From Patescibacteria group bacterium (GTDB lineage: Bacteria > Patescibacteriota > Minisyncoccia > Phycocordibacterales > UBA1006), in NCBI GenBank assembly GCA_028286885.1, contig JAQBQS010000008.1:12121-76120 (forward strand): DNA of 64,000 nucleotides, written 5' to 3'. Positions 2,584-40,543 of this stretch are shown here, piece by piece. A model generated the notes under the pieces. It did not search any database. It worked only from the letters and a program-made list of their open reading frames with translations, and was not told the origin of the DNA. The translations under genes were made by a program, and so were the position numbers. How positions within the stretch are numbered: position 1 is the stretch's first letter; each line of letters begins with the position of its first letter.

Positions 2584-3054
2584 TTACCAAACTCTCTCAA
2601 TATCACGAGTTCCAGACTCATATTCCCTGATCCTGCGCATAGTTGCAGGGCTCGTATCGAACGGAAGCAAACCAAGATGAAACCATTTTGCATCGTCAAG
2701 TTCATATCCTCGCACGAATTGTGAGTCCGTACATATGAGAATTAAAATTTCTACTGCGTCCGTCTTGCCTTCCCGCTGATTAAAATAGACGCCAAGTTTT
2801 TCATGATGCGTAATCCATTGCGGCGGGATGCGCAATTCCTCCCACAGTTCGCGAAGAAGGCCGTCAAATGTGTTTTCAGATTTCTTAATCCCTCCGCCGG
2901 GAAGCGACCAGTAATCGCGCATCGCATGTTTGACCAAGAGTATGTGATTGTCTCGAATAAGAAGCCCTCGCGCGCCTCGCGTATGAGGGCGAAAAACTTT
3001 CCAGTAGATCCGCGCCCACGGATAAAAAATATGTTTGAAGAGAAACTTTTTCAC
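2584..3054 (-). CDS. NUDIX hydrolase
   Basis: Nudix box GGGIKKSENTFDGLLRELWEE. The first codon is GTG. Confidence 0.8.
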   Translation of the reverse strand: MKKFLFKHIFYPWARIYWKVFRPHTRGARGLLIRDNHILLVKHAMRDYWSLPGGGIKKSENTFDGLLRELWEELRIPPQWITHHEKLGVYFNQREGKTDAVEILILICTDSQFVRGYELDDAKWFHLGLLPFDTSPATMRRIREYESGTRDIERVW

Positions 3055-18631: not shown

Positions 18632-20812
18632 ATGAACGAGACATTCGAGAACCGGGCAAATCTGCCCGACAAGCTTTTGAAGCCCTACAACTCTCAGGAA
18701 ACCGAGGGTCCTATTTACAAGATGTGGGAAGAATCCGGTTTTTTTAATCCGGATGTTTGCATTGAAAAAGGTGTAACGAAGGCCGATGCAAAACCGTTTA
18801 CGGTTATCATGCCCCCTCCTAACGCCAACGGACGGCTCCACGTCGGCCATGCGCTGTTTGTAACGCTCGAGGACATCATGACGCGATTCAACCGTATGCA
18901 GGGCAAGCGGACTCTTTGGGTTCCCGGAGCGGATCATGCCGGATTTGAAACGCAAATCGTATACGAGCGAAAACTCGAGAAAGAGGGACGTTCGCGTTTC
19001 GAGATGACACCGGAACAGCTCTACAAGGAAATCTACGACTTTACGATTGAAAATAAAAAATACATGGAAGACGATGTCCGAAGACTCGGCGCATCGTGCG
19101 ATTGGTCGCGCGAAAAATTTACGCTTGATCCCGACATCGTAAAAAACGTCCAGCAGACATTCGACAAGATGTTCAAGGACGACCTCATCTACCGAGGCGA
19201 CCGGATCGTGAACTGGTGTTCAAAGCACCAGACTTCCCTTTCAGAAGTAGAAACTGAATACTTGGAAAAAGCAGATCCGTTTTATTATTTCCAGTACGGG
19301 CCTTTCGTCATTGGAACAGCCCGTCCCGAAACCAAATTCGGCGACAAGTATGTCGTCATGCATCCCGACGACAAGAGATATGCGGAATTTAAGCATGGAG
19401 ACAAGCTGACCGTTGAATGGATCAACGGTCCGATCGAAACAACCATCATCAAAGATACGGCGATCGATATGGAATTCGGTACCGGCGTTATGACAATTAC
19501 CCCTTGGCATTCCCAAGTGGACTTTGAAATTGCCGAACGCCATGGACTCGACAAGGAGCAGATCATCGACTGGAAAGGAAAACTCCTTCCTATCGCCGAG
19601 GAATTTGCTGGCATCCACATTTCAAAAGCACGTCCCCTGATCATTGAAAAGATGCAGTCGAAGGGGCTTGTCGTAAAAGTTGATAACGATTACAAACACA
19701 ACGTAAAAACCTGCTACAAGTGCAATACGGTCATCGAGCCGCAGATCAAAGACCAGTGGTTCGTCAAGATGCGACCTCTCGCCGACCGAGCCCTTGAAGC
19801 AGTTAATGCTGGAAAAATTAAATTCATTCCGAATAACTACGAGAAAATTTTTAAGTATTGGATGGAAAATACGATCGACTGGAACATTTCCCGCCAGATT
19901 GTTTGGGGTATCCCGATTCCCGCAAAAATCTGTTCCAAGTGTAAAAAGGGATATTCCGATCCCGATGACATCATGACAACATGCGACTGCGGCGGCGAAC
20001 TTGTCAAAGATACCGATACGTTCGATACGTGGTTTTCATCAGGACAATGGACGCTCCTTGCGCTCGGTTATCCGGACTCGAAAGACGTTGATGTTTACCA
20101 TCCCACGAGCGTCATGGAAACCGGCCACGACCTGATTTTCAAGTGGATCCCGCGCATGGTTATCTTCGCGCTCTACTTGAAAAATGAGATTGCATTTGAA
20201 ACGGTTTACTTGCACGGTCTTGTAAATGACGAGAAGGGACAGAAAATGTCCAAATCCAAAGGCAACGTATTGAGTCCAATTGACCTATCAGACCAATTCG
20301 GAACGGACGCGCTCCGCATGGCGCTTGTCGTCGGCAACACACCCGGAAACGATCTGGCATTGTCAAAAGACAAGATCAAAGCCTACTCGAAATTCGCCAA
20401 CAAGATGTGGAACGCGACGCGGTTCGTACTCGAAAATATTCATGGAATGGATCTGAGCGCGCCGATCGAATTTGACCAAGAAGACCAAATCTCTATTGAC
20501 GAACTCAAAACCTTGATCAAAGAAATCACGCAAGAGATGGAAGAGTACAAGTTCTACATCGTTTCCGAGAAGCTCTACCATGCATTCTGGGACACATTCG
20601 CAGGAACGATCCTCGAGCGATGCAAAGTCAAAATTACTGAAGATCGAAATGCAAAAAGTGCTAAATGGACGCTGTACATTTATCTCACGACTCTCGTGAA
20701 GGCGCTTCATCCGTTCATGCCGTTCATCACCGAAGAACTCTGGTCAATCATTCCGCAGATGACAGAAGATAAAAAATTGCTTATGATTGAGTCATGGCCG
20801 GAATCAGTCTAA
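18632..20812 (+). CDS. valS: valine--tRNA ligase (short form, 726 aa)
   Basis: HIGH (LHVGHA) and KMSKS motifs. The ValRS-like editing region has ADHAGFETQ and RLGASCDWSREKFTLD. Confidence 0.85.
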   Translation: MNETFENRANLPDKLLKPYNSQETEGPIYKMWEESGFFNPDVCIEKGVTKADAKPFTVIMPPPNANGRLHVGHALFVTLEDIMTRFNRMQGKRTLWVPGADHAGFETQIVYERKLEKEGRSRFEMTPEQLYKEIYDFTIENKKYMEDDVRRLGASCDWSREKFTLDPDIVKNVQQTFDKMFKDDLIYRGDRIVNWCSKHQTSLSEVETEYLEKADPFYYFQYGPFVIGTARPETKFGDKYVVMHPDDKRYAEFKHGDKLTVEWINGPIETTIIKDTAIDMEFGTGVMTITPWHSQVDFEIAERHGLDKEQIIDWKGKLLPIAEEFAGIHISKARPLIIEKMQSKGLVVKVDNDYKHNVKTCYKCNTVIEPQIKDQWFVKMRPLADRALEAVNAGKIKFIPNNYEKIFKYWMENTIDWNISRQIVWGIPIPAKICSKCKKGYSDPDDIMTTCDCGGELVKDTDTFDTWFSSGQWTLLALGYPDSKDVDVYHPTSVMETGHDLIFKWIPRMVIFALYLKNEIAFETVYLHGLVNDEKGQKMSKSKGNVLSPIDLSDQFGTDALRMALVVGNTPGNDLALSKDKIKAYSKFANKMWNATRFVLENIHGMDLSAPIEFDQEDQISIDELKTLIKEITQEMEEYKFYIVSEKLYHAFWDTFAGTILERCKVKITEDRNAKSAKWTLYIYLTTLVKALHPFMPFITEELWSIIPQMTEDKKLLMIESWPESV

Positions 20813-22130: not shown

Positions 22131-22646
22131 TTATTTATCTAAAATTTCTTCTGCTTTCTTGATAAAAATAAGGTGGGTTTTTGCATTGTACAGCCTTCCT
22201 TGATACGAATCGCTTTTTTTATCCAATTCAGCATTCGTTTCTATTTCTCTTATCATCTTTTCAAGATAGCCTATTGCATCCTTGAAGCTCTTCCAAGCAA
22301 TGTCAGTCCCGACCTCGTCTTCCTGTGTGGTCGTCGGCCTTGCTGAAATTCCAATAAATTTGGCGAGGACGCATGTTATTTCGTACCGTTGCTTCAGTGC
22401 ATCCCGATATTGAACAACTGTTCCCAAGGATCGAATAATGTCGATTATGACGCCCGCCTCTTCAAGGCATTCTCTCTTCAACGCGTCTTCGAAAGATTCG
22501 CCCTCTTCTATCCCGCCTCCGATCAGGAAATTTGGAAACAGAAGAATCTCATCTTTATCGTTCAAGATGACAGCCTTCACCGTCATGCGCGTCGGATAAT
22601 CAGTCGGCTCGAATTTGTTTGAGTTTAATGTTGCGAGTATTTCCAT
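22131..22646 (-). CDS. NUDIX hydrolase
   Basis: Nudix box GGGIEEGESFEDALKRECLEEAG. Confidence 0.8.
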   Translation of the reverse strand: MEILATLNSNKFEPTDYPTRMTVKAVILNDKDEILLFPNFLIGGGIEEGESFEDALKRECLEEAGVIIDIIRSLGTVVQYRDALKQRYEITCVLAKFIGISARPTTTQEDEVGTDIAWKSFKDAIGYLEKMIREIETNAELDKKSDSYQGRLYNAKTHLIFIKKAEEILDK

Positions 22647-24907: not shown

Positions 24908-24952
24908 ATGAAAATATCATACCACTTTTTATTTTTGTATACTATTGAGTTG

Positions 24953-25024
24953 TGCCCAAACCAGGAATCGAACCTGGATCTACTCGTTAGGAGTGAGTTG
25001 TTCTATCCATTGAACTACAAGGGC
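24953..25024 (-). tRNA. tRNA-Arg (anticodon CCU), atypical acceptor stem
   Basis: 5' half GCCCTTGTAGTTCAATGGATAGAAC, anticodon loop CTCCTAA and T-arm CCAGGTTCGATTCCTGG are canonical. The acceptor 3' strand is TTTGGGC, which leaves U5-U67 and U6-U66 mismatches. A31-C39 is also a mismatch. Confidence 0.6.
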
Positions 25025-25113: not shown

Positions 25114-26991
25114 TTAAGTCTTTTTCTTGTTGCGTTTGGCTATTTGCACAGCTATCGAATCCAAATCCTGGTCAGTTACCTCGCCGTTCCTCATCGTATT
25201 CTTTGCGGAAGTACGCAGGGCGTCTTTGGACTGGTCGATTTTCTGACGTTCGATTTTCGACTGCACTGCCTGCTCATTTGCAGAACGTGTCAGCTTTACG
25301 CTCGAGTTTTTGAAATCGTTTACTGCAATAATTTCCGAAGCCATGTCCAAAAATTGGATCGTGACATTGTCTCCCGGCTGCGTTATGACGATTCCGGGGA
25401 ATGTCTGGCTCACGCTGTAGAGGTGCGGATTATTATCAAAATAGAGATAATAGATCGAACCCGAACTGGTAGGAGTGCTGCTGATGCGAGTCACTTTTCC
25501 CGAAAACGTCTCGACGAGGGATGCCTGGTCGGTTCCGATCGCGGATGAAATGGACGAAAGCGAACTTTGGTATTTCATCAGCGCTTGCTGCGGATCAGGA
25601 TCCCATGCCATCGTCTTGCTTACCACGTCGATGAGAGCCAAGCCTTTTATGGAATGGTCCTCGGCGAGGATAGGCATGACGGCCGTCATCTTGTCACCGA
25701 CGTTTTCAAAGATGATCGCGGCGGGATGAAGATGCTGAAACTTAACCGTGGAGTTTACTGAATTAGTGAGAGCTTCCTCGGTCGAACCTGAAACAGAATA
25801 GCGTTTTGATTCGCCTGTTCTGCTGTTGGTATAGATCAAGTCTGTCATCGTTTGCGAGGCGTTTTTTCCGCTGCCTACGCTTGCTTTGACAGGAGTCACA
25901 TACCAACAGGTACCGTCTTCTCCGTAATTAAGCAGCGACGTCTCGGGCGTTCTGAGGTTTGCTTGAGCGCCGACAGCTGTCCTGTTCATAAAGCCCAAAG
26001 AATACCTCCCCCAATAAGAAATGTTGTCCTGCACGATCTCTTCCGGAATAACGCGGTCAATCCACAAAGGAGCTTTGGACTTGTCGTAGTAGGTAATCAA
26101 TCCATTTTCAGGATTTACAACAGCTACGCCGTCGACTACGATTCCGTCGCCTCCGATCGTCGAATGGCAAACGCTGACAACCCAAAAAGGGTTCAGGCTG
26201 TCGTCTACTTCAAACGAATAGTCTTTCAGGATTTTCCCTGAATATCCGTTTGTGTACAGATGCCTTTCGAGATTATGATCCCAGAAAGCTTCAGGCGTGT
26301 ACAGCATTTTGTACCCCCTGATATAGCGGGGCACGACATGCTGATTTTCGGCATTTACGAGCACGTATCCCGGAACGCCTGTGGTTCCATTGTAAGATCC
26401 CCAGCTTCTGTAATCGAGAGGAATGACCCACACCAGTTCGTCTTTTACCTTCTGCAAGGTAGCATTGTCGTCAAGCAGCGTAAACTGGCTTCCGACAATG
26501 TCTCCCTGATCATCAGGATTCTGATTAAGCGACGTCTTGGCAATCGATATGGCATGCTCGACCGGAACAACGCGCAAATGCGTCGGCGAGACCTCTTCGG
26601 TCTGCTGGGTCCAATGCTTCAATGAGTGGCCTTCTTTGTCGAGAGGCCCGATCAGAGCGGCATATCTCGTTGAGTTTCCGGCAGTACAGCTTGACATACC
26701 GCATACCGCGATCGCAAAAAAATAAACGAGCGTTACGATTACAGCCCCGGATGAGGCCTTTTCATTAGCAACGCTTGCCAGCACGCAGCTGACGATCATC
26801 AGAACGAGTGTCCAAAGAGATGGACCGCTTGTCATAATGAAGTTAAGCGAAGGACAGGTCGTGTAATAAATTACCCCGCTTAGGAGAAAATAGATTACGA
26901 ATAAAACTCCAGAGAGCACGGGTTTTCTGCCGATCAAGGCAGGGACGGCGCCTAAAAACGCCGAGATAAGGGCTAACAGTAAAAATGTCAT
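25114..26991 (-). CDS. hypothetical polytopic membrane protein with large extracytoplasmic domain
   Basis: About five N-terminal TM helices followed by roughly 450 aa of soluble domain. Start set at ATG 26991, since the ORF-track start is TTG. TTGCAA-16-TAAATT lies 8 nt upstream. Confidence 0.55.
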   Translation of the reverse strand: MTFLLLALISAFLGAVPALIGRKPVLSGVLFVIYFLLSGVIYYTTCPSLNFIMTSGPSLWTLVLMIVSCVLASVANEKASSGAVIVTLVYFFAIAVCGMSSCTAGNSTRYAALIGPLDKEGHSLKHWTQQTEEVSPTHLRVVPVEHAISIAKTSLNQNPDDQGDIVGSQFTLLDDNATLQKVKDELVWVIPLDYRSWGSYNGTTGVPGYVLVNAENQHVVPRYIRGYKMLYTPEAFWDHNLERHLYTNGYSGKILKDYSFEVDDSLNPFWVVSVCHSTIGGDGIVVDGVAVVNPENGLITYYDKSKAPLWIDRVIPEEIVQDNISYWGRYSLGFMNRTAVGAQANLRTPETSLLNYGEDGTCWYVTPVKASVGSGKNASQTMTDLIYTNSRTGESKRYSVSGSTEEALTNSVNSTVKFQHLHPAAIIFENVGDKMTAVMPILAEDHSIKGLALIDVVSKTMAWDPDPQQALMKYQSSLSSISSAIGTDQASLVETFSGKVTRISSTPTSSGSIYYLYFDNNPHLYSVSQTFPGIVITQPGDNVTIQFLDMASEIIAVNDFKNSSVKLTRSANEQAVQSKIERQKIDQSKDALRTSAKNTMRNGEVTDQDLDSIAVQIAKRNKKKT

Positions 26992-27099
26992 GGTTTTAAA
27001 ATTTAAATGAACAATATCCTTTTGCAAGGGTGAGAATTCCCATTCGGGCAATCCTCAATATCGATTAAAAGATAACATTTTTAAAGTAAAAAGTCAAGT

Positions 27100-37014: not shown

Positions 37015-39924
37015 TTAGATGACGATCGAAATAATTTTGCCGGCAACATAGATAAATTTCTTTACGTCTTTTCCGTCAGTCCATTTCTTGATCTCGTCCA
37101 TCGCGAAGACTTTTTCGCGAACTGATTCCTCGCTTTCATCCTTGGCAAGTTCGATTTCGGCACGGACTTTTCCGTTGACTTGGATGCCGAGCTTCACCGT
37201 GTCATCAATGACAAGATTCGAATCATACTTTGGCCAATCTGACAGATGAATTGAATCAGTTTCGCCAAGCTCGTGCCAGATTTCTTCGGCGACATGCGGC
37301 GCAAATGGGGCAAGAATTTTCAAGAATGCCTTAAGATCCAAAACGGAAATCTGATAATCAGAATCAATTTCATTGGCAAGAATCATCAGCGATGAAACGG
37401 CCGTATTGAACTTGAATCCTTCGATATCATCACTCACCTTTTTAATCGTCTTGTGAAGCAATTTTTGTATGCCTTCACGAGTAGCGCCATTTGCATTCTT
37501 GGCCTTCTCGGAAATTTTCCAGACTTTTTCAACAAAGCGGAGCGTTCCAACCATCCCGTTCATGTCCCAACGCGCGGTCTGTTCAAACGGCCCGATGAAC
37601 ATTTCGTACAAACGGAAAGCATCGGCGCCGAATTGGTTCACGACATCGGTCGGATCAATTCCGTTCCCGTCGCGCTTCGAAAATTTCTTGCCATTCTTGT
37701 CCAAAATATATCCCAAGAATTCAAGGCGAGGAAACGGCTCTTCAGTCGAAACGGCGCCGATATCGAAGAGGAACTTGTGCCAGAACCTTGCATAGATCAG
37801 ATGCCGTGTCGCATGATCTGCTCCTGAATAAATATCGACGGGCATCCAGTGTTTTTCCTTGTCTTTGTCTACGAATGCATCTTGATTATGCGGATCAATG
37901 TAACGCAAGTAGTACCAAGACGATCCGGCCCACTGTGGCATTGTGTTGGTTTCGCGTTTTGCTGCGCCTCCGCATTTAGGACATGGAATGTTAACCCATG
38001 ATTCGATCGCGGCGAGCGGACTCTCCCCTGTTCCTGTCGGTTCGTAATGGGACACCTCAGGCAACATGACCGGAAGTTCCGATTCCGGAACGGGTACAAC
38101 GCCGCATTTCTCGCAGTGGATCATGGGAATCGGTTCGCCCCAGTAGCGCTGACGCGAGAAGACCCAATCCTTCAGACGATACGTAGCCATCAGTTTCCCG
38201 CCGACGAACTCGGTAATTTTTTTGCGAGCTTCACTTGAATCCATTCCATCAAACTCTCCTGAATTTACAAGAATGCCGGATTCGACATATGCTTCGTCAT
38301 TATTTTTTGCGAGACGCGCGAGCCAGTACGGAAGTTCCGAATTGACCATTTTGCCCGGAACAAATTCTGATTTTGAAACCCATACATTTTCGTTGCCTTC
38401 GTTTTCACCATCTGTTGGAATTTTAATTTTTGCATCACTTCGAAGTTCGAAATACAGGGCCGACGCAATCGCGTTGCGATTCTCGTCTTTATGCTTCGCA
38501 AAATACGATGCCTGAACTGGATTGCCGAGGAATCGCTTGAATTCCAAATCGGCATAACCCGTTTCCTCTTGCAATTCGCGCGTTGCCGCCTCGATCAGAT
38601 CCTCACCTTCCTCAACACCGCCAATTACAACTGTATCCCATCCGAATTTTGAATTCCTGATGATGAGGTATTTTTCAGTTTTCGGATCATAGACGATGGC
38701 ATGCACGTTCCGTCTTACTTTTGTCGCCTTATCTGTTCGAGGAGGATTTACATGATCAACAACCGAAGGCCGAACAACTTCGTGAATCGGCAAATCATAT
38801 TTTTTTGCAAATTCGAAATCGCGCTCATCGTGCGCCGGAACCGCCATCACCGCACCTGTTCCATAATTCGCCAAGACGTAGTCGGCAACGTAGACAGGAA
38901 TCTCTTGTGCGTTTGCAGGATTGATCGCAACAACGCCTTCGATTCGCACGCCCGTCTTTTCCTTCTTGGCATTTGTTCGATCAATGTCCGATTTCTCGGA
39001 AGACTGTTTTACGTAAGCTCGCACCTCATCCTCATTATCGATAACATCTTTATGATTTTCATCCAACGCCAATGTTACCCAAGGATGCTCGGGAGCAAGC
39101 ACGATGTATGTCACCCCAAAGAGCGTATCCGCGCGCGTCGTGAAAACAGGAAGACGCGCAGGATTTCCATCCGCATCGCGTCGTTCGTTCCAATCTGGAT
39201 GCGTCGTGAATTTCAAGTTGAAATAAATTTCCGAACCTTCTGAACGTCCGATCCAGTTTCGCTGGGCTTCTTTCACGCCTTCCGGCCACTTCGAGAGCTT
39301 GTCCAAGTCCGCAAGCATTCGGTCTGCATAATCGGTAATCTTCAGAACCCACTGGCGCATCGGACGCTTCTCGACTTTCGCTCCGCATCGTTCGCATGTT
39401 CCGTCAGCTTCGACGTCCTCGTTGGCAAGAACCGTCTTATCGACAGGACACCAATTGACCGGTTCATTTGATTCGTATGCCAATCCCTTGTTGAACATCT
39501 GGATGAACATCCACTGCGTCCACTTGTAAAATCCGGGATCGGTCGTGTTGATTTCTCGCGACCAGTCGTAATCGAATCCGATGACAGACAACTGATCTTT
39601 AAAAGCTTGAATATTTTTTTCAACAGCAACACGCGGATGGACTTTATTCTTGATAGCAAAATTTTCTGCAGGCAGACCAAAAGCATCCCATCCCATCGGA
39701 TGCAGTACATTGAATCCCATCATGCGCTTCATGCGACTGTACACGTCGGTCGCAATAAATCCCCGCGGATGTCCGACGTGGAGTCCGATGCCTGACGGAT
39801 ACGGGAACATGTCCAAAATCAGCTGCTTGGGCTTGTCAGAATTCTCAGCCGTCTTGTACGTCTGATTCTTGTTCCAAGTTTCCTGCCATTTCGATTCGAT
39901 TTTCTTGTGATCGTAATTGTTCAT
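37015..39924 (-). CDS. leuS: leucine--tRNA ligase carrying an inserted NUDIX domain
   Basis: HVGH and KMSKS (KFSKR) motifs. CP1 editing motifs TTRADTLFGVTYIVLAPEH and GTGAVMAVPAHD. The YRLKDWVFSRQRYWGEPIP segment. About 165 extra residues lie between KYDLPIHEV and LVNSGEFDG. Confidence 0.9.
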   Translation of the reverse strand: MNNYDHKKIESKWQETWNKNQTYKTAENSDKPKQLILDMFPYPSGIGLHVGHPRGFIATDVYSRMKRMMGFNVLHPMGWDAFGLPAENFAIKNKVHPRVAVEKNIQAFKDQLSVIGFDYDWSREINTTDPGFYKWTQWMFIQMFNKGLAYESNEPVNWCPVDKTVLANEDVEADGTCERCGAKVEKRPMRQWVLKITDYADRMLADLDKLSKWPEGVKEAQRNWIGRSEGSEIYFNLKFTTHPDWNERRDADGNPARLPVFTTRADTLFGVTYIVLAPEHPWVTLALDENHKDVIDNEDEVRAYVKQSSEKSDIDRTNAKKEKTGVRIEGVVAINPANAQEIPVYVADYVLANYGTGAVMAVPAHDERDFEFAKKYDLPIHEVVRPSVVDHVNPPRTDKATKVRRNVHAIVYDPKTEKYLIIRNSKFGWDTVVIGGVEEGEDLIEAATRELQEETGYADLEFKRFLGNPVQASYFAKHKDENRNAIASALYFELRSDAKIKIPTDGENEGNENVWVSKSEFVPGKMVNSELPYWLARLAKNNDEAYVESGILVNSGEFDGMDSSEARKKITEFVGGKLMATYRLKDWVFSRQRYWGEPIPMIHCEKCGVVPVPESELPVMLPEVSHYEPTGTGESPLAAIESWVNIPCPKCGGAAKRETNTMPQWAGSSWYYLRYIDPHNQDAFVDKDKEKHWMPVDIYSGADHATRHLIYARFWHKFLFDIGAVSTEEPFPRLEFLGYILDKNGKKFSKRDGNGIDPTDVVNQFGADAFRLYEMFIGPFEQTARWDMNGMVGTLRFVEKVWKISEKAKNANGATREGIQKLLHKTIKKVSDDIEGFKFNTAVSSLMILANEIDSDYQISVLDLKAFLKILAPFAPHVAEEIWHELGETDSIHLSDWPKYDSNLVIDDTVKLGIQVNGKVRAEIELAKDESEESVREKVFAMDEIKKWTDGKDVKKFIYVAGKIISIVI
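38275..38772 (-). other. NUDIX hydrolase domain inserted within LeuRS (residues ~385-550)
   Basis: Nudix box GGVEEGEDLIEAATRELQEETG lies in frame inside leuS (DNA 38554..38622), flanked by a complete Nudix-fold-sized segment. Confidence 0.6.
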
Positions 39925-39925
39925 A

Positions 39926-40543
39926 TTATATTTCTCCCGATTCTATCGACTCTCTCCTGTCTGCCAAGGTCTTGCCTTCGTATTTCCAATAAATAGTTCC
40001 TTGCGGTTTGTATTTATAACCAAGAAGTTTCCACGCTGCGTCTGAAAGACTTGTTACTTCGCCGTTTAATTCAATAGTCTTTTTTCCCGAAGATGCAACC
40101 ACTTTCGCCTTGATGCTTTCATTTTTTACGAAAAAGATTTCTGCTCCAAGAGGTATTTTTGCGGCTTCGAAATTAAACGATGATTTTCTTTCGCGCGCAT
40201 CTTGCAACGCCTTTTTATCTTCTTCTGATTCAAAGAAATCTTCTTTTGGTGTGATCTCTTCCAGTTCTGCGATCTTTAAGGCTGCGACAATCCTGTCAGG
40301 GGAAATTTGAAAGAACTCCCTATTACTCCTTACTCTGTTATTAAGAAATGCATCATGGAGAAGTTTTTCTATTTCCCTTGCGTTCCTCAGTTTTAACTTT
40401 GCAGCATAATAACATTCAAAAGGAAGCGGCGCTGAAGTAGTATCGAGCTCTTTAAGCCGTTGCTGAATGCTGGTAGTTGTAAAACCTACTTTAACATATC
40501 CCGGCATTGCCTCGTTTATTAAGACGTATACGATCTCGTTCAT
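39926..40543 (-). CDS. T5orf172 (GIY-YIG-like) domain protein with DUF4357-like C-terminus
   Basis: IVYVLINEAMPGYVKVGFTTTSIQQRLKEL...PFEC...EFF matches the T5orf172/MUG113 pattern. The stop lies 1 nt before the leuS ATG. Confidence 0.55.
   Translation of the reverse strand: MNEIVYVLINEAMPGYVKVGFTTTSIQQRLKELDTTSAPLPFECYYAAKLKLRNAREIEKLLHDAFLNNRVRSNREFFQISPDRIVAALKIAELEEITPKEDFFESEEDKKALQDARERKSSFNFEAAKIPLGAEIFFVKNESIKAKVVASSGKKTIELNGEVTSLSDAAWKLLGYKYKPQGTIYWKYEGKTLADRRESIESGEI

Follow-up and report, generated by a model that had tools for sequence, protein, structure and literature searches.

A Nudix domain embedded in the CP1 editing domain of a leucyl-tRNA synthetase from Patescibacteria

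The leuS gene and its inserted Nudix domain

The window analyzed here, a stretch of 64,000 nucleotides from contig JAQBQS010000008.1 of a Patescibacteria group bacterium (assembly GCA_028286885.1), contains a leuS gene at 37015..39924 on the minus strand, and all parts of this gene described below lie on that strand. The gene is one unbroken open reading frame (ORF) for a bacterial-type leucyl-tRNA synthetase (LeuRS) of 969 residues, which bears a Nudix domain as an insert in its CP1 editing domain. An initial annotation made from the sequence alone had described a complete LeuRS with its signature motifs, and inside CP1 an in-frame, stop-free and complete Nudix fold with an intact Nudix box, and all of this is borne out by the profile searches, by the alignment to Thermus thermophilus LeuRS, and by the structure model reported here. 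The whole protein scores 1005.2 bits with the NCBIfam model TIGR00396 (leuS_bact, cut-off 548.4), and Pfam recognizes tRNA-synt_1, tRNA-synt_1_2, Anticodon_1, and the editing domain PF13603, the match to which is interrupted by the insert (residues 222-390 correspond to profile positions 1-146 of 185). When the motif positions were re-derived, the HIGH signature was found as HVGH at residues 49-52 (39769..39780) and the KMSKS signature as KFSKR at residues 747-751 (37672..37686), where KMSKR is the family consensus among 80 aligned LeuRS. The N-terminal part of CP1 (residues 226-385, 38770..39249, by PF13603) contains the T-rich motif TTRADT (residues 262-267, 39124..39141) and the GTG...AHD motif GTGAVMAVPAHD (residues 355-366, 38827..38862) with the catalytic Asp366. 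The C-terminal part, which includes ILVNSGEFDG, follows after the insert at residues 543-585 (38170..38298), where the alignment restarts at T. thermophilus residue 374. T262, T263, R264, T267, and D366 are invariant across the 80 homologues, and the CP1 editing site of the query LeuRS is, by these residues, intact.

An AlphaFold2 model of the protein, built on 80 homologues, has a pLDDT of 90.9 and a pTM of 0.81. The fold search with this full-length model matched LeuRS structures only, and the best solved match was the Escherichia coli LeuRS–tRNA complex 5omw (Foldseek, TMt 0.86). The HMMER alignment to T. thermophilus LeuRS (1h3n) extends through residue 876, and in this alignment nothing corresponds to the leucine-specific domain, as T. 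thermophilus residues 578-638 fall into a gap between residues 741 and 748 of the query, and a short linker precedes KFSKR in place of the domain (37672..37710, residues ~741-751). Some relatives (e.g., L051, L057, L063, and L067) have about 200 additional residues at this position. The missing domain does not bar the protein from membership in the LeuRS family, because the LeuRS of Mycoplasma mobile is functional without it (PMC3643597). That source describes a minimal enzyme in which a GKDG tetrapeptide takes the place of the leucine-specific domain and in which CP1 is lacking as well, whereas our query protein retains CP1 and adds the Nudix domain to it. By the sequence and structure tests applied, the protein belongs to the bacterial LeuRS and also to the Nudix superfamily, with the leucine-specific domain absent, and we predict that the gene encodes a working LeuRS that leucylates tRNALeu.

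Together with its linkers, the Nudix domain spans residues 386-542 (38299..38769, by HMMER alignment to 1h3n) and stands in place of T. thermophilus residues 364-373, a loop of 10 residues. The slightly larger stretch 38275..38772, which had been proposed as the insert, translates to residues 385-550 and is stop-free. The profile check suggested for it gave a clear result, as the Pfam family NUDIX (PF00293, gathering cut-off 21.1 bits) matches residues 404-528 (38341..38715) with an E-value of 7.6e-15 and 55.5 bits in the full protein, and with 4.3e-16 and 59.6 bits when the insert is searched alone. The insert shows the alpha/beta/alpha Nudix fold, and the Nudix box GGVEEGEDLIEAATRELQEETGY at residues 435-457 (38554..38622) fits GX5EX7REUXEEXGU exactly. 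A segment in the region of the X-loop, the loop that contacts the substrate in Nudix enzymes (PMC5389931), is specific for the clade to which the insert belongs; it consists of Tyr474, 17 residues past the box, followed by HKDENR at residues 478-483 (38476..38505). With regard to the signatures of other Nudix subfamilies as defined in PMC5389931, the proline found ~15-16 residues after the box in ADP-ribose pyrophosphatases is not present, as positions +15 and +16 are A472 and S473 and the nearby proline, P469, is at +12, and the NADH signature SQPWPFPxS is absent from the query sequence. The inserted domain is a complete Nudix module and appears to be catalytically competent.

The insertion point lies ~20 residues past the catalytic Asp366, between the CP1 core helices alpha2 and alpha3. 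This is the site of the I4b insertion, a loop that is variable among bacteria and flanks the side of the editing pocket, and its archaeal/eukaryal equivalent I4ae covers the opening of that pocket (PMC3747510). The bacterial LeuRS with I4b, such as those of Streptococcus pneumoniae, E. coli, and T. thermophilus, and the archaeal/eukaryal LeuRS with I4ae share with our protein an insertion point just after the catalytic Asp, and the catalytic motifs of bacterial CP1 domains are likewise intact in the query. However, I4b and I4ae as known from other LeuRS amount to no more than a loop or one helix of ~10-30 residues, whereas the query has an autonomous enzyme domain of 157 residues at this site. 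In the AlphaFold2 model, the means of 10-residue blocks range from 83 to 97 over the Nudix domain and both linkers, which suggests that the domain is held rigidly in a fixed position at the editing pocket and does not hang on flexible linkers.

Occurrence, conservation, and history of the Nudix cassette

The identical 969-residue protein is recorded at NCBI as 'MAG: leucine--tRNA ligase [Patescibacteria group bacterium]', and a Logan assembly that was made independently contains it as well (P0001). The survey of orthologues that had been recommended revealed that the architecture is common: PF00293 was detected in ~110 of the 120 closest LeuRS homologues, and a scan for the clade-specific motif [YF][FY][AT]xHK[DG][EVQ]NR in one genome per GTDB species resulted in at least 584 confirmed matches. 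The best 80 of these at least 584 matches are all inside leuS ORFs, 57 of them at the site of the query and 23 at a second site, and the carriers among the matches listed include Giovannoni-, Nomura-, Taylor-, Vogel-, Yonath-, and Uhrbacteria, and other Paceibacterota. The Nudix-bearing LeuRS is a lineage-wide feature of Paceibacteria, and not an oddity of one genome. In public databases, these proteins are simply named 'leucine--tRNA ligase', and free homologues of the domain are named 'MutT' or even 'leuS'. A search with the insert alone in an index of 5.8 billion proteins matched one fragment, a truncated LeuRS that is labelled MutT (P0121).

Because the homologues are too divergent for an analysis of nonsynonymous versus synonymous substitution rates (58-70% protein identity), selection was judged by conservation at the level of residues. 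The Nudix region is the fastest-evolving part of the protein, with a mean pairwise identity of 41% among the 80 aligned LeuRS, as compared to 55-74% elsewhere. Nevertheless, G435, E450, and E454 are invariant in all 80 sequences, and the other box residues are kept in nearly all of them (E453 in 79, G456 in 78, E441 in 76, and R449 in 75). Residues of the X-loop region are similarly kept (K479 in 79, N482 and R483 in 74 each, H478 in 65), as is W515 (in 74-79), and position 474 is aromatic in 74 of the 80, with a tyrosine in 52 and a phenylalanine in 22. The retention of the metal-binding glutamates at an overall identity of 41% is the pattern expected from selection for catalysis, as far as can be judged from aligned residues.

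With a profile built from the inserts, we found that a LeuRS can contain one to three homologous copies of the Nudix domain. The second insertion site lies just before CP1, between 'ITDYADRLL.DLD' and 'WPE.IKEAQRNWIG', and it is occupied either by a single copy or by a tandem pair in which the second member is missing the R and one E of the box. The Nudix subtype of the query is 58-66% identical to copies at the pre-CP1 site, and its sequence cluster has 53 members, 33 from the query's site and 20 from the other, all with the strict box. Residues ~381-530 of the query are 73-89% identical to LeuRS whose cores match only 58-62%, and its flanks have their nearest counterparts (up to 84-95% identity per segment of the alignment) in P0003, P0051, P0075, P0002, and P0030, which have no Nudix domain or a different insert. 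Over 79 homologues, the identities of Nudix domain and core are negatively correlated (r = -0.78). These discordant identities indicate that the domain has been repeatedly replaced, transferred, or lost, and the cassette has its own history, distinct from that of the host leuS. As it can be swapped, duplicated, moved, or lost, it is probably an accessory that leucylation can do without.

The LeuRS relatives P0006, P0010, P0022, P0032, P0038, P0021, P0066, and P0083 have 1100-1560 residues, and L013 is an ORF of 1735 residues. These long forms contain up to three Nudix copies together with other domains inside leuS: the stretch that leads from the first CP1 strand to the T-rich motif houses either a serine hydrolase/alpha-beta hydrolase or a phosphatase of the HAD_2 family, and further inserts are a DUF559 (Vsr-like endonuclease) domain and segments without a Pfam match. 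In eight species-representative LeuRS, from Vogelbacteria and relatives (L025, L027, L029, L033, L036, L040, L054, and L056), the T-rich motif TTRxDT is replaced, for example by 'EAFYADT'; they have their Nudix domain at the pre-CP1 site and have kept GTG...HD and the Nudix box. Given the lost motif, these eight LeuRS may be editing-deficient.

Association with other synthetase genes

Members of the same clade were found in and beside genes of other synthetases. Two independent genes for archaeal-type prolyl-tRNA synthetase (ProRS) carry a clade Nudix domain between the anticodon-binding and the C-terminal domains (P0241, 643 residues; L085 1171..3096, plus strand). Their Nudix box is altered: K or N stands in place of R, and the loop has lost one residue. 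Degenerate boxes are found in these ProRS copies, in the second tandem copy at the other LeuRS site, and in the largest subclade of standalone homologues. Such standalone proteins of 155-185 residues were detected by profile searches on contigs of up to 668 kb, and we examined the genomic context of 12 of them, a sample that is small and partly non-independent. In the standalone subclade with an intact box, four of the four sampled genes (P0148, P0295, P0363, and P0292; loci L086 5001..8494 and the JGI contigs of P0148, P0363, and P0292) are directly upstream of leuS on the same strand, and in two of the four cases the two genes are separated by a gap of 2 nt or overlap. The adjacent LeuRS has 806-828 residues and no embedded copy in three of these cases, and 951 residues with an embedded copy in the fourth. 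In another standalone subclade, both sampled members are directly upstream of thrS (L088 1078..3453; L089 63..2438; L091 4001..6367), and at these thrS loci a YgjV-family gene precedes the Nudix gene and miaA lies slightly downstream, an order that is conserved in separate assemblies.

In addition, some clade members are found apart from synthetase genes or in unusual arrangements. P0398 (281 residues, L081 6001..6846) consists of a free-standing C-terminal half of CP1 followed by a Nudix domain, with the catalytic AHD changed to AHI; it is listed in 62 blocks of the collection and is not near leuS. It looks like a detached and diverged piece of a LeuRS-Nudix gene. P0175 (467 residues, on a contig of 393 kb), P0145 (379 residues), and P0405 (1430 residues) have at least two tandem clade Nudix domains and no synthetase part.

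The clade thus has at least five separate associations with synthetases, namely the two LeuRS sites, ProRS, and the adjacency to leuS and to thrS. Since the domain is fused within LeuRS and ProRS, and since the free gene lies upstream of leuS or thrS, the clade is functionally tied to aminoacyl-tRNA synthetases, a link that the initial annotation had raised as a possibility. The recurrent fusion and adjacency in Patescibacteria, as read from gene arrangement, points to an undescribed accessory activity of synthetases. The fusion had also been noted as an architecture not yet described, and this agrees with the literature searched, where we found no description of a Nudix fusion with LeuRS or any other aminoacyl-tRNA synthetase, with subscription journals being sparsely covered. 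A survey of the Nudix clan from 2017 never mentions tRNA synthetases (PMC5389931). Among the curated NCBIfam models, there is none for a LeuRS-Nudix protein that would be equivalent to NF040702 (ileS_w_GNAT), an exception model for an isoleucyl-tRNA synthetase (IleRS) with a GNAT domain. That case likewise combines a class I synthetase with an extra catalytic domain, but the domain, the synthetase, and the position are all different. An accessory hydrolase family that occurs both fused to a synthetase and free is a pattern also seen with the ProRS INS domain and YbaK/ProX, with AlaX, and with ThrRS-ed. However, the modules of the YbaK/AlaX type hydrolyze aminoacyl-tRNA esters and have folds unrelated to Nudix, and we know of no Nudix-fold member among such fused or free editing modules. 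The Nudix-in-LeuRS architecture, a LeuRS with an embedded second enzyme, is genuine, extends across the lineage, and has no description in the literature searched.

In the window itself, two standalone Nudix genes had been pointed out, and both are genuine (2584..3054, minus strand, PF00293 E-value 2e-13; 22131..22646, minus strand, 8e-12). We rejected them as donors or paralogues of the insert, as they resemble it at the level of the box only and score 10 and 28 bits with the clade profile, compared to 239 bits for the insert. On the same strand as leuS, a gene for 205 residues with T5orf172/MUG113 domains of the GIY-YIG-like nuclease superfamily (39926..40543, minus strand, E-value 7.5e-17) leaves just 1 nt to the start codon of leuS at its end, and in some relatives a standalone Nudix gene occupies this position upstream of leuS. 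A second class I synthetase gene for 726 residues (18632..20812, plus strand; tRNA-synt_1 and Anticodon_1) is short for a valyl-tRNA synthetase or an IleRS, and Pfam detected no Nudix insertion in it. A 645-residue ORF without a Pfam match at E-values up to 1e-5 (25114..27051, minus strand) adjoins a gene for tRNA-Arg(CCT) (24952..25024).

Possible function of the embedded domain

As to the function of the Nudix domain in the I4b loop of CP1, we tentatively favor the hydrolysis of a nucleotide by-product that is common to synthetases, most likely of dinucleoside polyphosphates of the diadenosine tetraphosphate (Ap4A) type. In such a mechanism, aminoacyl-adenylate and ATP would react at the synthetase to yield Ap4A and related compounds, the Nudix domain would cleave them and return ATP and AMP, and the fusion would hold synthetase and hydrolase at a constant 1:1 ratio in organisms that have tiny genomes and rely on scavenging for their nucleotides. 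Synthetases rank among the chief producers of Ap4A in cells, and Nudix enzymes including RppH degrade it (PMC10148737). The pairing of an Ap4A-making synthetase with a degrading enzyme is also found in animals with lysyl-tRNA synthetase and NUDT2, and in bacteria with synthetases and ApaH or RppH (PMC10148737), but these partners are separate and unlinked proteins, whereas here they are parts of one polypeptide or products of adjacent, translationally coupled genes. Tyr474 coincides with the position of the tyrosine signature of the diadenosine polyphosphate (ApnA) hydrolases, which have a Tyr in the X-loop ~17 residues past their box (Dunn 1999, cited from PMC5389931); the signature correlates with ApnA activity and is no proof of it (PMC5389931). 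The best characterised structural neighbors of the insert are ApnA- and RppH-type enzymes, and its best sequence match in the PDB is the lupin Ap4A hydrolase (E-value 1.9e-6), a weak match that covers the box region only. With E. coli RppH/NudH, Ndx1, Rv2985, and the plant and animal Ap4A hydrolases, the insert shares the Nudix fold, the canonical box, and the aromatic residue at +17. It differs from them in that identities are only 17-24%, equivalog scores are far below the cut-offs, and the clade has its own HK[DG]ENR motif, an N-terminal extension, and members that are embedded in synthetases and not free.

Several points weigh against the hydrolysis of Ap4A-type compounds as the function. 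The resemblance to characterised Ap4A hydrolases is weak and limited to the box region, and the NCBIfam equivalogs for RppH, NudB, and NudE give 25-28 bits, with cut-offs of 103-169. The closest LeuRS relatives (P0003, P0051, and P0075) have no Nudix domain, which means that the domain is dispensable for LeuRS, and the serine hydrolase, HAD, and DUF559 inserts in the leuS of relatives hint that this gene may simply tolerate insertions. Six of the 12 sampled standalone homologues are not next to any synthetase gene. Finally, a diffusible substrate needs no physical insertion beside the editing pocket.

An alternative takes the domain for a general-purpose Nudix enzyme of the house-cleaning kind (MutT-like or ADP-sugar-like), which has no synthetase-specific task and merely resides in a permissive surface loop of a gene that is essential and steadily expressed in streamlined genomes. 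The variety of folds that the leuS of relatives can host, including ones that we could not assign, the presence or absence of the insert among close relatives, the half of the sampled standalone homologues that are remote from synthetase genes, and the label MutT that annotation pipelines give to homologues are all in line with this view. A permissive loop alone is nevertheless insufficient to account for at least five separate associations with synthetase genes; moreover, the other class I synthetase of the window lacks an insert, and neither the ADP-ribose proline nor the NADH signature SQPWPFPxS is present in the domain. We therefore regard this alternative as unlikely, even though it fares best among the rivals of Ap4A-type hydrolysis. 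Slightly behind it we place a more far-reaching reading, in which the whole clade is a dedicated synthetase accessory that acts in cis when embedded and in trans when adjacent and provides a hitherto unrecognized quality control based on Nudix enzymes, either by hydrolyzing misactivated aminoacyl-adenylates, as a new route of pre-transfer editing, or by an obligatory removal of Ap4A-type nucleotides made by the synthetase, at the surface of the enzyme, with the cassette being exchanged between leuS genes by recombination. In this full form, it is doubtful.

The domain could also have a role in proofreading, by hydrolyzing non-cognate aminoacyl-adenylates (e.g., norvalyl- or methionyl-AMP) that leave the synthetic site. 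Such pre-transfer editing by a Nudix domain would operate beside or instead of the post-transfer editing by CP1. LeuRS, ProRS, and threonyl-tRNA synthetase (ThrRS) are error-prone synthetases that edit, and it is these three to which the clade is tied. In addition, the I4b loop borders the editing pocket with the domain, according to the model, rigidly docked, and the eight second-site LeuRS that have lost the T-rich motif have an intact Nudix box. However, an aminoacyl-AMP is an acyl-phosphate and not a nucleoside diphosphate linked to another moiety, and to our knowledge, no Nudix enzyme hydrolyzes such a compound; the enzymes that do so belong to the HIT family. Furthermore, the query has kept its CP1 editing site, so that nothing in it needs replacing, and the ProRS copies have the altered box in which R is K or N. 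Proofreading by the Nudix domain is hence not likely, and we rank it just below the two preceding alternatives.

In yet another scenario, the domain would be an RppH-like pyrophosphohydrolase or decapping enzyme that LeuRS brings to tRNALeu or other RNAs, from whose 5' ends it would remove a triphosphate, an Np4N cap, or an NAD cap. The high-ranking structural matches of the insert also include the decapping effectors AvrM14 and the WY-Nudix proteins of oomycetes, RppH models of NCBIfam match it weakly, and the conserved basic and aromatic residues R404, W429, H478, K479, R483, and W515 could bind phosphates and bases. Although its fold resembles that of RppH, the domain does not belong to this family, as the scores with the equivalog models (PRK00714) are 16-26 bits, with cut-offs of 116-259. 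RNase P normally generates the 5' ends of mature tRNAs, and these are monophosphates; the insertion site lies close to the pocket that takes up the 3' and not the 5' end of the tRNA, and the domain has no evident RNA-binding extension. An activity at RNA 5' ends is therefore improbable.

Even less probable is a non-catalytic domain that regulates LeuRS as a structural, tRNA-binding, or nucleotide-sensing module. Nudix folds do serve non-enzymatically in NrtR/NadQ regulators and in the mitoribosomal protein L46, and AraR, NrtR, NadQ, and L46 are among the structural matches. The degenerate boxes of the second tandem copy, of the ProRS copies, and of the largest standalone subclade would be compatible with such a role, which is plausible for these copies. 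It is not plausible for the copy of the query, whose subtype has a perfect box, with the strict motif in all members of its cluster and with invariant metal-binding glutamates.

The suspicion that the insert is spurious (a chimeric assembly, a pair of genes with a frameshift, or a selfish element resembling an intein), nourished by a source that is a metagenome-assembled genome and by a cassette history that differs from that of the host gene, can be dismissed with near certainty, since both flanks are in frame in a single ORF, the same protein occurs in two independent assemblies, hundreds of genomes share the architecture, the GC content is level across the junctions, a repeat scan for mobile-element signatures found no terminal repeats and only short chance repeats, and Pfam sees NUDIX alone in the insert and no intein or endonuclease domain. 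The initial annotation had named re-sequencing evidence of a frameshift or chimera as a possible objection, and with the independent assembly and the recurrence in hundreds of genomes, neither chance nor an artefact can account for the insert.

Few enzymes have been studied as much as the aminoacyl-tRNA synthetases, and where these have idiosyncratic insertions, a function such as editing, tRNA binding, or signalling mostly comes with them. As insertions of this kind usually prove functional, a second enzyme beside the editing pocket of LeuRS would be significant. The comparative evidence for a functional link of the clade to synthetases is unusually rich, and the system, whose proteins are soluble single chains, offers an experimental handle on two old questions, namely the fate of synthetase-made Ap4A and the policing of released aminoacyl-adenylates. 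It also provides a case of a protein domain that is exchanged like a cassette within a gene that is essential, and the LeuRS-Nudix protein is a lineage marker for Paceibacteria. The conservation in hundreds of uncultured species, together with the recurrence at ProRS, leuS, and thrS, would add a new kind of accessory activity to the synthetases.

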